DNA of 14,877 nt, taken from a virus (Duplodnaviria; Heunggongvirae; Uroviricota; Caudoviricetes). The first letter of the stretch is position 1, and the number at the start of each line of letters is the position of its first letter. Under the pieces are notes generated by a model. It saw only the letters and a list, made by a program, of their open reading frames with translations. It did not search any database and had not been told where the DNA came from. Shown piece after piece: positions 1-6,173 of the stretch. Where the stretch lies: the IMG/VR virus record IMGVR_UViG_2703718796_000007; one strand, written 5' to 3'. A program made the position numbers and the translations under genes.

Positions 1-1218
1 ATGAACAAACTGAGCGATACCTTGCTAAGGAAACTTCATGGTAAGCCAGCGGAGAAAAACACGTTTTATAGCGATGGCGGAAATCTGAGCGTGAAATATT
101 TAACATCAGGGAAATTAACCTGGTATTTCACTTACAGGGCAGGAACGGGAAGAGAGACACGACCGGAACGTATTAAGCTGGGAAATTATCCTGATCTGAG
201 CCTGAAAGCAGCCAGGGAAAAAGCCGCCCAGTGTCGCGCATGGCTGGCGGAGGGGAAAAATCCACGCCATGAGATGAATTACGCCGTACAGGAAGCGTTA
301 AAGCCGGTAACGGTTGGCGATGCGCTCACCTACTGGCTTGAGTCGTACGTAAAGGAAAACCGCGTGGATTATATCGCCCTGAAAAGGCGACTTAATAATC
401 ACGTAATACAGTACATTGGCGCTATGCCGCTGGATAAATGCGAGCTACGGCACTGGCTGGCCTGTTTTGACCAGGTGGCAAAGCGAACACCTGTTACTGC
501 CGGATTCGTGCTACAGACATGCAAGCAGGCGCTTAAGTTCTGCCGGAGGCGGCGCTTTGCAATCAGCAACGTTCTCGATGATCTGAACGTGGCGGACGTT
601 GGGAAAAAACCGGATATAAGCGAACGTGTCTTAAGCACCAAAGAACTGGGCGAGTTATTGCAGGCGCTGGATAAAAAAATATTTTCTCCTTACTACGTCG
701 CGTTAATCCGCCTCCTGATTGTCTTCGGAGCCAGGACGGTAGAACTGAGGTTATCGGAGATCAGCGAGTGGGATTTTACCGAAATGCTATGGACCGTTCC
801 GAAGGAGCACAGCAAAACAAAGGTTGCAATATTCCGGCCCATACCGGAAGCGATCCTGCCGTTCGTCACGCGGCTGGTGGACCAGAACAGGCACACGGGC
901 TTATTACTGGGGGAAGTGAAACAGGAGGCCAGCGTATCGCAGTACGGCAGATTAGCGCACAGGAGGCTAAAACACCCTCAATGGTCATTGCATGACATCC
1001 GGCGCACCTTTACAACCATGCTGAACGATTTAGGCGTTGATCCTCACGTCGTGGAGCAGCTTACAGGCCACCAGATGCCAGGAATGCAACGCGTGTACAA
1101 CCATTCCCGCTATATTGATGCGAAACGCAATGCGCTTGATATGTGGGTGGAGCGGTTGGAGATACTGGCGGGAACACATGAAAACGTAACCACGCTACCA
1201 GTAACCAGAATAAAATAA
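1..1218 (+). CDS. int: Tyrosine integrase, P4-like family with N-terminal arm-binding domain
   Basis: 405-aa ORF starting at window position 1. N-terminus LSDGGNLSVKY...YRAGTGRETRPERIKLGNYPDLSLKAAREKA fits the P4-family arm-binding domain pattern. C-terminal region has box I Arg (GARTVELRL), HDIRRTF (H-x-x-R) and a terminal Tyr context (VYNHSRY). Confidence 0.9.
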   Translation: MNKLSDTLLRKLHGKPAEKNTFYSDGGNLSVKYLTSGKLTWYFTYRAGTGRETRPERIKLGNYPDLSLKAAREKAAQCRAWLAEGKNPRHEMNYAVQEALKPVTVGDALTYWLESYVKENRVDYIALKRRLNNHVIQYIGAMPLDKCELRHWLACFDQVAKRTPVTAGFVLQTCKQALKFCRRRRFAISNVLDDLNVADVGKKPDISERVLSTKELGELLQALDKKIFSPYYVALIRLLIVFGARTVELRLSEISEWDFTEMLWTVPKEHSKTKVAIFRPIPEAILPFVTRLVDQNRHTGLLLGEVKQEASVSQYGRLAHRRLKHPQWSLHDIRRTFTTMLNDLGVDPHVVEQLTGHQMPGMQRVYNHSRYIDAKRNALDMWVERLEILAGTHENVTTLPVTRIK

Positions 1219-1582: not shown

Positions 1583-1771
1583 GTGTTAAGCACTGATCGG
1601 TTTATACGTGAAAAAGAATGCGAAAAGCTAACAGGCCTTAGCCGCTCATGCCGCTACCGCCTGGAAAAGGCCGGACAATTCCCATCACGTCGTAAACTTG
1701 GTGGGCGTTCTGTTGGCTGGTCTTTATCTGAGGTTTTGGCCTGGAAGGATAGCTGCAAGGCAGTTCACTAA
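1583..1771 (+). CDS. alpA: AlpA/Vis-family transcriptional regulator (winged-helix, excisionase-like)
   Basis: 62 codons; GTG start 5 nt after a GGGGG Shine-Dalgarno. LTGLSRSCRYRLEKAGQFPSRRKLGGRSVGWSLSEVLAW matches the AlpA family pattern. Confidence 0.85.
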   Translation: MLSTDRFIREKECEKLTGLSRSCRYRLEKAGQFPSRRKLGGRSVGWSLSEVLAWKDSCKAVH

Positions 1772-2275: not shown

Positions 2276-2470
2276 TTATTCTTTGGGTTCAATACCGCGT
2301 TGCTGTAATTCTTTTCGGATTATTCGTTTTATCCAAGCAGCTAAAGAGTCATCACCGTCTTGTTGTTGTGCTTTTTCCATCTTTTCCCGTAAGTCAGGAT
2401 CTAAACGGAACTGGAAAGGAGGATTACCACGCCTTTCATTTTTGTGTGTTGACACGTCAATTACACCCAT
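2276..2470 (-). CDS. Ribbon-helix-helix (Arc/MetJ-like) DNA-binding protein, cassette 1
   Basis: 64 aa; basic N-terminal tail then FQFRLDPDLREKMEKAQQ...SLAAWIKRIIRKEL, the beta-strand plus two-helix pattern typical of RHH repressors. Confidence 0.6.
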   Translation of the reverse strand: MGVIDVSTHKNERRGNPPFQFRLDPDLREKMEKAQQQDGDDSLAAWIKRIIRKELQQRGIEPKE

Positions 2471-2475
2471 ATAAT
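2449..2475 (+). promoter_or_regulatory. Candidate sigma70 promoter, rightward (copy 1 of a duplicated control region)
   Basis: TTGACA (2449-2454), 15-bp spacer, TATAAT (2470-2475). The spacer is shorter than optimal. Followed directly by a palindromic operator. Confidence 0.35.
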
Positions 2476-2481
2476 GTGTTT

Positions 2482-2497
2482 ATGTGTATATACACAT
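2482..2497. promoter_or_regulatory. 16-bp perfect palindrome operator ATGTGTATATACACAT
   Basis: Perfect dyad symmetry immediately downstream of the -10 hexamer; same TGTG...CACA half-sites as the TGTGCGCACA sites at 3184-3264. Confidence 0.5.
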
Positions 2498-2510
2498 TAC
2501 ACACAACTAG

Positions 2511-2555
2511 CACAAAAAACAACGCCCCGCAGTGATGGGAACACATACGGGGCGT
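2511..2555 (-). terminator. Rho-independent terminator on the minus strand (copy 1 of a conserved hairpin block)
   Basis: Stem ACGCCCCG / CGGGGCGT (8 bp, 18-nt loop); on the minus strand it is followed by TGTTTTTTG. Lies between the two minus-strand cassettes. Confidence 0.55.
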
Positions 2556-2674
2556 CTAACCAAACCATTAATTGAGGTAACGATTATGGCTATAAAAGAG
2601 CATAGCTTACTCTTTATACACACACAAACGCCCCGGAAACGGAATAATCCGTTTCATAGTTCGGTTTTGTGCAC

Positions 2675-2902
2675 TCATCCTGGCGGTCGGTTTTTGCCGG
2701 ATTTAAGCCGCCGTGGGTATTTATCGACAAAATCTTCAAGGGCAAATTTTTCTGGTGGCACTAAGCGCGGCGCTGGTGGTGGTATTTTTGTTCTGGTTAG
2801 TTCTTCCTCAAGTCTGGCGCAGGCTTCTGACTGCCTTTGCCGAATGATTTCATCTTCTTGCGTCTGCGTGTCTTGTATTGGTGATAGTGTGTTGTTGGTC
2901 AT
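2675..2902 (-). CDS. Hypothetical 75-aa protein, cassette-2 partner (paralog of 2015..2218)
   Basis: Protein-like ORF; shared MTN start and F-x-L-E-D-F-x-x-K-Y motif with 2015..2218; Pro-rich central segment. Confidence 0.5.
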   Translation of the reverse strand: MTNNTLSPIQDTQTQEDEIIRQRQSEACARLEEELTRTKIPPPAPRLVPPEKFALEDFVDKYPRRLKSGKNRPPG

Positions 2903-2959
2903 GGTACTGCCCTGTAAAGCAATGCGCCGTAGTACCTCACGCCACGGCGCTGATGGTGG
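2903..2959. repeat. Conserved intergenic block, copy 2 (core 2911..2955)
   Basis: cctgtaaagcaatgcgccgTAGTAcctcacgccacggcgctgatg; see copy 1 at 2219..2275. Confidence 0.8.
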
Positions 2960-3157
2960 TTATTCCTGCTCTTTGGCCTTGCGGCGCTGTTCATATTTTA
3001 ATTTGCGTCCACAGGCATCTAAGACCCATGCGGAAAAATTAGCACTAGGATTAGTTAATTTTTCTTGTTCAACGCTGGCATCAATCCCATCTATAAGCTC
3101 ATGTGGGAATCGAATATTTTTCTTTGCTGATTTGTTGTTTGTGTTACCACTAGACAT
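2960..3157 (-). CDS. Ribbon-helix-helix DNA-binding protein, cassette 2
   Basis: 65 aa; IRFPHELIDGIDASVEQEK...NFSAWVLDACGRKL fits the RHH beta-strand plus helices pattern. GAGGTG Shine-Dalgarno 5 nt before the ATG on the minus strand. Confidence 0.55.
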   Translation of the reverse strand: MSSGNTNNKSAKKNIRFPHELIDGIDASVEQEKLTNPSANFSAWVLDACGRKLKYEQRRKAKEQE

Positions 3158-3183
3158 TGATGCACCTCACTTAAATGGACTTT

Positions 3184-3264
3184 ATGGGCGCACACAATAC
3201 AGCAAAAAAAATGAGATGTTAAGTATTGACATGTGCGCACACATGATTTTAATCTGTGCGCACA
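3184..3264. promoter_or_regulatory. Divergent control region with three TGTGCGCACA-type palindromic operators and a rightward sigma70-like promoter
   Basis: TGGGCGCACA (3184-3193), TGTGCGCACA (3232-3241) and TGTGCGCACA (3255-3264). The last two are 23 bp apart and bracket the promoter TTGACA (3226-3231), 16-bp spacer, TTTAAT (3248-3253). A possible leftward promoter TTGCTG...TAAAGT lies near 3175-3205 on the minus strand. Confidence 0.55.
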
Positions 3265-3292
3265 GTTTGAGTTTTGTCACTCAAATTAAGCA

Positions 3293-3326
3293 ACGCCCCG
3301 CAGTGCTCGCAACACATGCAGGGCGT
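3293..3326. other. Conserved hairpin block, copy 2, in the 5' leader of the rightward operon
   Basis: ACGCCCCG...CAGGGCGT (one mismatch in the stem), then CTAACCA and GAGGTA-N4-ATG; parallels 2520-2588, where the same block precedes an ATG at 2586. Confidence 0.5.
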
Positions 3327-3362
3327 CTAACCACCAACGATAGCGAAAGTATCGAGGTAGCT

Positions 3363-3563
3363 ATGAGAAATAATACCACACACCCGCAAGGGCGGGACTC
3401 GCACAACCTGAATAAATACATCTGGCGTTTTATCGCCCTGAGCACGGCACAACCGCGCGTGATTACCATTGAGGCCACCAGCGAACAGGAAGCACGCCAG
3501 CAATCCCCGGCTGGCTGCGTGATGGTATTCGCTGCCCGTATTCGCCAGGGGGTAGGCTTATGA
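3363..3563 (+). CDS. Hypothetical 66-aa protein, first gene of the rightward early operon
   Basis: ATG 4 nt after GAGGTA; shares its stop with the next gene's start (ATGA overlap at 3560). Family not recognised. Confidence 0.5.
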   Translation: MRNNTTHPQGRDSHNLNKYIWRFIALSTAQPRVITIEATSEQEARQQSPAGCVMVFAARIRQGVGL

Positions 3564-4479: not shown

Positions 4480-4779
4480 ATGAAACTTAAATATTCTGGC
4501 TTAACTGCCAGTGGCAACACTCACCCTAAATTTACGCGCGGTGATATTTACCGCGACCAGTACGGCGGCACGGTAATGATTAAGGGCGTGGCGGGACGGT
4601 GCGTAACTTACCGCCGTGAAGGTTACGAATATGATTGCGTGATGCCTGTTTATCAGTTCCGGCGTGATTTTTCTCTGGTACAGGCCGTACCGCGTAACGT
4701 GCCCACCAGCAGGGAGAAAGCACGCGCCAATATTCAGAAGATGAAAAACATGATTAACGGATTCAGGGGCAAGAAATGA
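4480..4779 (+). CDS. Small conserved prophage protein (possibly DUF4222-like)
   Basis: GGAG Shine-Dalgarno 8 nt upstream. RGDIYRDQYGGTVMIKGV...VTYRREGYEYDCVMPVYQF resembles a small family common in enterobacterial prophages; the family name is from memory and tentative. Confidence 0.55.
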   Translation: MKLKYSGLTASGNTHPKFTRGDIYRDQYGGTVMIKGVAGRCVTYRREGYEYDCVMPVYQFRRDFSLVQAVPRNVPTSREKARANIQKMKNMINGFRGKK

Positions 4780-6173
4780 AAAGCGCACCGAACTTAAAAA
4801 AACAGCCTTACGACAAGATGACCGAAGTCATCATTTTTGCGGGTAGTGATGCGTGGGCACATGCGAAACAGTGGCAGGAACAGGACGGGCGACTGGCTGG
4901 CGATAATTTGCCTCCCATTGTGCTGGCTGATGATCAACTGGATGAACTGGCAGACCTGAGAATCATCGACGAGGGGCGCTATTGTGTCCGGCTGTACAAG
5001 GCAGGCCACATCAGGCCATCAAATATTAATGCCATTGCGCACAAGCTGGCGGCGGCGGGCGTAACTGATGCGAATTATTACCCCGAAGGGATACACAGCC
5101 AGAAGCGGGAGAACTGGCGCGAATATCTGGAACGGGAGCGGGGGAAAAAGCCAGGGGAAGAACACCACCAGCGAAAAACCACGCTACCGATGAGCGTTGG
5201 ATCTGCCGGATACGACACGCAATTAGATTACGTGGTAAAGGGGATTATTCCGGCATCGTCGCTATGCAGCATATACGGGGCAAGCGGTTCCTATAAATCA
5301 TTCCTTGCTGGTTCGTGGGCGTGTCACGTTTCCACGGGCCGCCAGTGGGGAGGCCGCAGGGTGGCGCATGGCGCTGTTCTCTATGTGGTTGGTGAAGGCG
5401 GTATCGGCGTTCCGCGTCGTGTAAAAGCCTGGGAGGTTGTGCACGGTGAGCAGGTGAAAAATCTGTATCTGGTAAACCGTCCCATCTTTCCGGCTGTCCC
5501 GCTTGATGTTGATGAACTGGTTATTGCTGCCAGTCAGGTGGAGAGGGAAACGGGTAAACCTGTTCGCATGATTATTCTGGACACGCTGGCGCGCTGCTTT
5601 GGCGGCAATGATGAAAATGACTCCCGCGACATGGGGGCGTTTATCCGTGGGTGTGACGAACTGAAACGACGCACAGGGGCCACGGTGCTGGTGGTTCACC
5701 ATTCCGGCAAGGATGAGACGAAAGGCGCGCGCGGTTCCAGTGCATTTCGTGCATCACTGGATGCTGAATACCGGATACGCAGGGAGGACGCAGGAAGCGA
5801 AGCGCTGGTTATCTCATGCACCAAAATGAAGGACGCGGAGGAACTCAAAGAGGCTGCCTATGATTTGCGGGTGGTGGAGCTTTTTACCGACGCTGACGGG
5901 GAGTTAATCACGTCGCTGGTGGTGGTGGATAAGCCGCGCCCTCCCGTTGAACTGGAGCGCATCGAGGAGGCAGGGAACAAGACGGAAAACCATACCGCGC
6001 TATGGGGGTGCATCCGTTCACGCACACAGAACGGCGACAAGTGCACGATCCCGCTGTTACGTGATGACATGAAAAAACTGGGGTATGAAATGAAAAACTT
6101 CCGGCGCTGGCTGTACAAGCTGGAAAAAGATGGGGTTATTCGTATCGATGGGGATGATGTAGCGCCGCTATAA
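4776..6173 (+). CDS. Replication initiator: RepA-like / AAA_25-type RecA-fold ATPase (helicase loader or helicase) with an N-terminal extension
   Basis: 465 aa. Walker A-like YGASGSYKSFLAG; Walker B MIILDTLARCFGG; the VLVVHHSGKD motif typical of RepA/AAA_25 proteins. Followed immediately by iterons. Confidence 0.85.
   Translation: MKSAPNLKKQPYDKMTEVIIFAGSDAWAHAKQWQEQDGRLAGDNLPPIVLADDQLDELADLRIIDEGRYCVRLYKAGHIRPSNINAIAHKLAAAGVTDANYYPEGIHSQKRENWREYLERERGKKPGEEHHQRKTTLPMSVGSAGYDTQLDYVVKGIIPASSLCSIYGASGSYKSFLAGSWACHVSTGRQWGGRRVAHGAVLYVVGEGGIGVPRRVKAWEVVHGEQVKNLYLVNRPIFPAVPLDVDELVIAASQVERETGKPVRMIILDTLARCFGGNDENDSRDMGAFIRGCDELKRRTGATVLVVHHSGKDETKGARGSSAFRASLDAEYRIRREDAGSEALVISCTKMKDAEELKEAAYDLRVVELFTDADGELITSLVVVDKPRPPVELERIEEAGNKTENHTALWGCIRSRTQNGDKCTIPLLRDDMKKLGYEMKNFRRWLYKLEKDGVIRIDGDDVAPL

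Follow-up and report, generated by a model that had tools for sequence, protein, structure and literature searches.

A YlcI/YnfO-family protein and three palindromic sites as a candidate repressor-operator cassette of a capsid-forming phage satellite

The closest described counterparts of the control region reported here lie in phage immunity systems and in other satellites. In the immI region of phage P22, the ribbon-helix-helix (RHH) repressors Arc and Mnt act at the divergent promoters Pant and Pmnt through one operator each and control the antirepressor. For the phage-inducible chromosomal islands (PICIs) of Gram-negative bacteria, AlpA-dependent activation has been reported, and the existence of a repressor was called unclear (PMC6092414). 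Here we analyze a viral DNA stretch of 14,877 nucleotides (IMG/VR record IMGVR_UViG_2703718796_000007, Caudoviricetes), referred to at its full length as the window, which from its gene content is an integrative phage satellite of the capsid-forming PICI (cf-PICI) type. Three short related sites, O1 to O3, lie on the divergent promoters P_L (leftward) and P_R (rightward), between the gene of a YlcI/YnfO-family protein, labeled RHH-B, and an operon that begins with an icd-like gene and leads into the replication module (Table 1). These sites are probably operators of the YlcI/YnfO protein, which would repress P_R through O2 and O3 and limit its own synthesis through the weaker O1.

The locus shares with P22 immI a small, divergently encoded protein, here probably of RHH type, short symmetric operators over the -10 and +1 positions and, by prediction, autoregulation. 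Unlike P22, which employs two RHH proteins, one protein would serve three sites (two to four among the loci), and the target is the icd-like/replication operon of a satellite. As in lambda immunity (CI, OR1-OR3, PR/PRM), three related operators about 23-24 bp apart span divergent promoters, and as in heteroimmune lambdoid cassettes, repressor and operators are swapped between near-identical elements and two classes can be found in one genome. In contrast to lambda, the candidate repressor is RHH-like rather than helix-turn-helix (HTH), O1 lies about 47 bp from O2, and neither a Cro counterpart nor a sign of SOS cleavage was seen. The position of a divergent regulator between int and the replication module, together with its presumed role, matches Stl/Rpr of the Staphylococcus aureus pathogenicity islands (SaPIs) and Gram-positive PICIs (PMC6092414), whereas the Stl proteins are larger HTH repressors that are inactivated by helper-phage proteins. 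Finally, an icd-like first gene behind a conserved structured leader recalls P1 immI (c4 - icd - ant) and the P4 CI RNA; in a comparison made via Rfam models only, the leader of the window has no match, and control here is apparently exerted by a protein at the promoter.

Table 1. Features of the regulatory region and its surroundings (positions in the window).
Feature	Position	Strand	Remark or basis
Integrase	1-1218		
AlpA	1583-1771		
Two regulatory modules	between 2015 and 3157	leftward	
67-aa gene of module A	2015-2218	leftward	
RHH-A, second RHH-like gene	2276-2470	-	PHROG 228 'Arc-like repressor', E 2e-6
Module A operator region	2472-2504		TGTGT/ACACA half-sites; includes palindrome ATGTGTATATACACAT (2482-2497)
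Copy of leader hairpin 2 (2522-2555) and truncated icd-like start (ATG 2587)	2522-2660	+	repeat and L050/L051 alignment
75-aa protein, leftward operon gene 2	2675-2902	-	open reading frame (ORF) list
RHH-B, candidate repressor, 65 aa, leftward operon gene 1	2960-3157	-	YlcI/YnfO / DUF3950
O1, ATGGGCGCACAC	3184-3195		10-mer 3185-3194; overlaps -10/+1 of P_L
P_L	3222 to 3194	-	-35 TTAACA (3222-3217), 17-nt spacer, -10 TATTGT (3199-3194); promoter scan
P_R	3226-3253	+	-35 TTGACA (3226-3231), 16-nt spacer, -10 TTTAAT (3248-3253); read from sequence
O2, ATGTGCGCACAC	3231-3242		starts on last base of the -35, fills the spacer of P_R
O3, CTGTGCGCACAG	3254-3265		directly after the -10 of P_R, over predicted +1
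Structured leader	3266-3354	+	hairpin 1 (3266-3285); hairpin 2 (3293-3326), then TCTAACCAC; hairpin 3 (3338-3354), adjoining Shine-Dalgarno (SD) sequence
Icd-like gene, rightward operon gene 1	3363-3563	+	NCBIfam phage_ICD_like, 69.9 bits
Rightward operon beyond the icd-like gene			small ORFs, DUF4222 (4480-4779), RepA-type AAA_25 protein (4776-6173)

A preliminary description of this DNA had reported two perfect 10-bp palindromes 23 bp apart, one within the spacer of the rightward promoter and one at its start site, and a one-mismatch copy overlapping the leftward promoter; each of these placements is borne out. A pattern search located TGTGCGCACA at 3232-3241 and 3255-3264, 23 bp from start to start, the first filling the spacer and the second covering the predicted start of P_R. 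The one-mismatch copy TGGGCGCACA occupies 3185-3194, and O1, taken as a 12-mer, shares two bases with the scan-predicted -10 of P_L and covers the expected start. No further match with at most one mismatch is present in the 14,877 bp, and the 12 additional matches at the two-mismatch level are scattered and within the number expected by chance. The expectation from shuffling is 0.80 matches per window, and a cluster of at least three matches within 80 bp did not arise in any of 20,000 first-order Markov simulations of the window (at least two: 111), a test applied to a pattern picked after the data were seen. Because of this post hoc choice, the evidence across loci given below is weightier than the clustering. 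That these sites are chance occurrences of a GC-rich palindrome, for which the short motif length and nothing more can be cited, is barely conceivable and already refuted by the clustering together with the conservation of the layout across loci. Comparison of the loci indicates that the functional unit would be a 12-bp two-fold (pseudo)symmetric site, (G/A/C)TG-N6-CA(C/G), rather than the 10-mer.

The -35 hexamers of P_L and P_R stand back to back, 3 bp apart, with an A-tract upstream of the rightward -35. The promoter scan missed P_R because it demands an A at position 2 of the -10, and the start sites of both promoters are predicted from sequence. On the + strand, the segment 3230-3255, which comprises the O2 palindrome plus ATTTTAAT, scored terminator-like in the promoter/terminator scan. 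It would be relevant only to transcripts reading through from alpA, and the scan found no convincing + strand terminator between the alpA promoter and the icd operon.

One genome per species was scanned with the family profile, which yielded 45 loci from Serratia, Klebsiella, Rahnella, Pectobacterium, Brenneria, Xenorhabdus, Proteus, Morganella, Pantoea, Arsenophonus, Gilliamella and Orbus. The layout is kept in about 60 related loci of the Enterobacterales (Enterobacteriaceae, Morganellaceae and others) and Orbaceae. Nearly all of the 45 show the same order: the start of the leftward gene, O1, (N)ATACA, an A-rich stretch, TTGAC(A/G), O2, a -10, O3, the structured leader and the icd-like gene. 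The (N)ATACA that follows O1 reads TATNGT, a -10, on the opposite strand and is present in most of 47 loci, and TTGAC(A/G) directly precedes O2 in nearly all related loci. O2 and O3 are 23 bp apart in most loci and O1 and O2 46-47 bp apart, with overall ranges of 23-29 bp and 45-47 bp; the L052 spacings of 25 bp and 45 bp suggest that the promoter hexamers, and not a strict helical phase, set where the sites lie. Across loci, these sites fit GTG-N6-CAC, with a central hexamer that varies between loci and is common to the sites within a locus. The central hexamers of O2 and O3 differ by 0.54 mismatches within a locus and by 3.31 between loci, and none of 20,000 permutations gave a value as low. 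These data bear on the idea that the repeats could instead be replication-origin iterons, or DNA with a structural part to play, for instance as a cruciform or a read-through terminator. The regular 23-bp spacing and the terminator-like score of the O2 palindrome with its T-run favor such a role, but each site keeps its place relative to the -35 and -10 hexamers and not to the other sites, many classes are only pseudo-palindromic and unable to form good hairpins, and the sites are shared by elements whose replication proteins are unrelated (RepA/AAA_25 in the window, a DUF927 primase in L002). We therefore regard an origin or structural role as highly improbable.

Some loci vary this scheme. 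In those of the GTGTTTAAACAC class (L014, L020, L024, L025, L030 and L040), a slot 24 bp upstream of O2 that is empty in the window holds a fourth site, and about 70 bp separate O2 from the site farthest away. Two copies are decayed: L034 (Erwinia tracheiphila) has a homopolymer run at the N-terminus of the repressor, and L041 (Symbiopectobacterium) has lost O3 and part of the promoter.

Near-identical elements of E. coli carry a different palindrome at the same three positions, namely CTGGAATCCAG / GTGGATTCCAC in L001, L003 and L004, and GTGGCTGACAC in L052 and L060. The class of a CFT073-like strain is GTGTGTTTCA. Six further E. coli icd loci, sampled from an evenly spaced match listing, all possess a divergent YlcI/YnfO gene (6/6), with the repeated sites GTGTTCAACAC, GTGTATTTCAC, GTGCGATTCAC and GGTACGTACC. 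Together with TGTGCGCACA, E. coli contains at least eight operator classes, each repeated two to four times. In L055, a 94%-identical copy of the cassette of the window, the intergenic substitutions spare all three sites and the promoter hexamers.

In the loci compared, the product of the divergent YlcI/YnfO gene is the one protein with which the operator class changes. The window, L001 and L052 represent three operator classes and three YlcI/YnfO N-termini (SAKKNIRFPH, SQKLQARAPH and SKKLEARVPH, respectively), and their AlpA proteins are 100% identical. The Icd-like protein of the window is 92-94% identical to those of L001 and L003 and 47% identical to that of L052, and the 75-aa neighbor is 95-97% identical between the window and L001/L003. 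Conversely, L055 combines the repressor and operators of the window with an AlpA of only 60% identity, and L002 combines them with a DUF927 primase in place of RepA, which again speaks against replication-protein iterons. The exchanged block extends from the stop of the repressor gene to just past leader hairpin 2; repressor gene and operators thus would behave like an exchangeable specificity ('immunity') cassette. The preliminary description had named one of the RHH proteins as the probable repressor: the comparative analysis supports operators on divergent promoters and narrows the assignment from any RHH protein to the adjacent YlcI/YnfO protein.

Binding by another factor, be it one of the element's own AlpA, Icd-like and 75-aa proteins, a helper-phage protein or a protein of the host such as LexA, is very unlikely in view of these comparisons. 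In related islands, AlpA is the one regulator with a demonstrated role, the PHROG family of the Icd-like protein is labeled 'transcriptional repressor', and O3 reads CTGT...ACAG, like the LexA half-sites. However, AlpA, the Icd-like protein and the 75-aa protein show little or no difference between elements of different operator classes, and a host factor cannot account for at least eight classes within E. coli. As determinants of specificity, the three element-encoded proteins were ruled out one by one: AlpA is identical in elements of different classes, and the Icd-like protein (92-94%, window versus L001/L003) and the 75-aa protein (95-97%) nearly so. The LexA box has the consensus CTGT-N8-ACAG. 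It was rejected because the sites read CTGT-N4-ACAG, the spacing of O3, or ATGT-N4-ACAC, and because their sequence varies among elements of one species.

RHH-B belongs to the YlcI/YnfO family (NCBIfam NF041551, 59.0 bits; cutoff 30) and to Pfam DUF3950 (PF13132, 28.3 bits; cutoff 25), and all 115 homologues bear PF13132 or the YlcI/YnfO family name. A functional study of this family was not found in the literature. From weak fold evidence, RHH-B is likely, rather than established, to be an RHH protein. The AlphaFold monomer shows an extended N-terminus and two helices at a predicted local distance difference test (pLDDT) value of 75; a Foldseek search of RHH-B against the PDB returned no match, and a PDB sequence search with both family profiles returned nothing meaningful. 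In contrast to P22 Arc, RHH-B falls outside the Pfam Arc/RHH models, with no match to these families even at E 10, and matches the RHH part of HicB_lk_antitox weakly (E 0.22). An indirect link is provided by RHH-A, which matches PHROG 228 'Arc-like repressor' and aligns to the RHH-B family. In a weak hhalign alignment to the Arc sequence, AKKNIRFPHELI is aligned with PQFNLRWPREVL, which places K12-K13-N14-I15-R16-F17-P18 against Arc Q9-F10-N11-L12-R13-W14-P15; the two proteins share the beta-strand motif N-x-R-[FW]-P-x-E. K12, N14 and R16 thereby face Q9, N11 and R13, the base-contacting residues of Arc. Among family members, R16 never varies and K13 hardly does, whereas positions 12 and 14 are variable. 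Loci of different genera that agree in the residue pair at positions 12 and 14 usually agree in operator class too: TTTAAA accompanies Y or F12 with G14, T(A/T)T(A/G)TG accompanies T12 with G14, and TGCGCA accompanies K12 with N14. In E. coli clone D i14 (L054, 2572-2877), the YlcI/YnfO protein has 101 residues owing to a C-terminal extension of about 40, which, by analogy with Mnt, could be an oligomerization or sensor domain.

Three sites of one specificity over both promoters make up a layout that suggests rightward shut-off combined with negative autoregulation. The YlcI/YnfO protein, bound at O2 in the spacer and at O3 over the -10/+1 region, would exclude RNA polymerase from P_R, and with P_R blocked the icd-like/replication operon of the satellite would stay silent; bound at the weaker O1, over the -10/+1 region of P_L, it would hold down its own production. 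The outer triplets of the site would be common to the family and the central hexamer allele-specific. A two-state choice between the operons, the decision envisaged earlier, is not suggested by this layout. It is unlikely that the YlcI/YnfO protein binds these sites without being a simple repressor, that is, as an activator of its own promoter in the manner of lambda CI at PRM or as part of a bistable switch with a second factor. Three sites with a spacing of about 23 bp around divergent promoters do recall the lambda OR layout, O1 is systematically weaker than O2 and O3, and in the TTTAAA class a fourth site occupies the slot 24 bp upstream of O2. But O1 covers the -10/+1 region of P_L instead of lying upstream of the -35, and such a position is a repressing one; a Cro-like partner was not found, and the Icd-like protein, encoded by the first rightward gene, stays unchanged when the operators change. 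Three operators and divergent promoters are present as in lambda, but the first rightward gene does not co-vary with the operators. The greater degeneracy of O1 across loci (1.9 versus 0.5 mismatches for O2 and O3) fits a weaker autoregulatory site.

Several points weigh against simple repression by the YlcI/YnfO protein. Binding, repression and the start sites, as well as autoregulation and the oligomeric state, are what we infer from sequence. The O1 statistics are biased by the choice of O1 as the best match left of the -35, and for O2-O3 the offset was selected from the range 22-29 bp. The relation between residues and operators is no clean code: L029 shares K12/N14 with the window, yet its sites are of the GTGTACACCCAC type. 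The repressor gene adjoins the operators, and the covariation of protein and operators alone could reflect linkage; beyond linkage, the concerted change of the sites within a locus and their dissociation from the other genes are the arguments that the compared sequences offer. Finally, AlpA, induced by the helper phage, is necessary for the induction of PICIs and cf-PICIs according to published work. Its expression alone induces a related E. coli PICI, with excision and replication of the classical PICI EcCICFT073, no repressor being reported (PMC6092414). Given these AlpA results, master control may lie outside this module. Transcription that starts at the alpA promoter and runs on through the leftward genes to the icd operon is a possible route of relief.

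When 3261-3368 is folded, the leader between O3 and the icd-like gene forms three hairpins, with a z-score of -2.74. Hairpin 2 is strongly supported by covariation: 88% of its alignment cells are paired, 10 of its 11 pairs show compensatory changes, and its covariation of 0.306 compares with 0.096 in shuffles and at most 0.077 in slid controls. This test used a hand-specified structure with controls; RNAalifold on the raw MAFFT alignment gave only seven pairs owing to register shifts. Hairpin 2 and the invariant-like TCTAACCAC also occur upstream of the icd-like genes in L005-L049, and hairpin 2 may be a processing, stability or antitermination element. An Rfam scan of the whole window at E <=1 gave chance-level matches only and nothing in 2400-3400; a known C4/IsrK-type RNA (C4, RF01695) was thus rejected as an identity of the leader. 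No complementarity of a hairpin loop to the ribosome-binding site was seen by eye. The hairpin at the ribosome-binding site (window 3338-3362) reads CGATA-GCGAAAG-TATCG, and elsewhere (L005-L049) CGTTA...TAACG; in many loci the SD lies within its loop or 3' arm, just before the icd-like ATG. This hairpin could modulate translation.

The second leftward module, module A, contains a palindrome that the preliminary description had related to the three sites. Its TGTG/CACA half-sites were correctly read, but the site most likely belongs to RHH-A, a distant relative of RHH-B with a compact module of its own, and not to the protein of the three sites. Among the 16 perfect 10-bp palindromes in the window, ATGTGTATATACACAT is the only other one of this type, and homologues of module A vary in the central 4 nt but retain the outer ATGTGT/ACACAT. 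Most RHH-A homologues have 59 residues, which suggests a GTG start at 2455; they carry the JGI name 'HicB family'. RHH-A has a sub-threshold YlcI/YnfO match and aligns to the RHH-B family in hhalign with E 2e-4 and a probability of 46%. In L050, a compact module A lies directly upstream of a full icd-like gene. In the window, the direct repeat 2517-2562 / 3288-3333 is 87% identical, and the segment 2522-2660 is, to judge from these alignments, a remnant of a second, tandem regulatory module. Several E. coli islands likewise contain icd-like remnants, labeled as pseudogenes, in the interval from alpA to the repressor gene. These remnants suggest recombination inside the leader/icd 5' region as the way in which cassettes are inserted. 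A further direct repeat of 74 nt (2208-2281 / 2892-2965, 84% identical) spans the junction of each RHH gene's stop with the next leftward gene, holds the hairpin GCGCCGT...ACGGCGC and coincides with the left boundary of the exchanged cassette.

The window has the gene set of a cf-PICI, with int, alpA, a replication module, capsid (HK97-type), protease, portal, head-completion, HNH, TerS and TerL genes, and neither tail nor lysis genes were seen within its 14.9 kb. The 75-aa protein has no match in family searches, and an SD sequence, GAGGTG, precedes the RHH-B ATG at 3157. In 139 E. coli genomes there are elements that match about 90% of the window at about 95% identity, near-identical ones being inserted, for example, in tqsA. 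A query of 2200-3600 matches 1,769 of 5,426 complete E. coli genomes (about one third), mostly over the leader-icd part only, and a divergent RHH-like gene was found in every inspected E. coli locus that matched it. The cassette of the window itself is present in 69 of the 5,426 genomes, as one copy each and never two. E. coli JNE141411 (NZ_AP027256.1) harbors two satellites, L052 with GTGGCTGACAC at 1.77 Mb and L055 with TGTGCGCACA at 0.98 Mb; the presence of two classes appears consistent with heteroimmunity. Searches of a phage collection with the regulatory region and the Icd-like protein gave a 16.5-kb 'phage' record as the sole match. That record, LR881103.1 (L053, 'Escherichia phage vB_KppS-Ant', 16.5 kb), was deposited as an induced phage and is a satellite with the same module, in which the YlcI/YnfO gene on the minus strand was left unannotated. 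On the + strand of the window, a 343-codon open frame (2532-3563) lies antisense to both leftward genes and continues in frame into the icd-like gene, and in relatives the Prokaryotic Genome Annotation Pipeline (PGAP) calls extended or pseudo 'Icd-like' coding sequences over the matching stretch. This frame is probably an annotation artifact, though its lack of stops is striking.

A description of this module, with a DUF3950 protein in a satellite setting, was not found in the literature. The proposed mechanism is classical, whereas the protein family and the setting are apparently undescribed as far as we could find; the interest therefore lies in satellite biology and not in regulatory principles. 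For Gram-negative satellites, the module offers a concrete and testable candidate repressor with defined predicted operators, and DUF3950 gains a likely function. The classes would also amount to a natural set of at least eight orthogonal pairs of small repressors and operators, and satellites could be typed simply by 'immunity' class. More broadly, we propose, tentatively and with more doubt than confidence, that YlcI/YnfO (DUF3950) proteins are the repressors of Gram-negative PICIs and cf-PICIs, and that their allelic cassettes define many mutually non-cross-reacting 'heteroimmune' satellite classes. If this is true, several satellites could coexist in one cell. Induction by the helper phage, via AlpA or an antirepressor, would then have to overcome the YlcI/YnfO protein.
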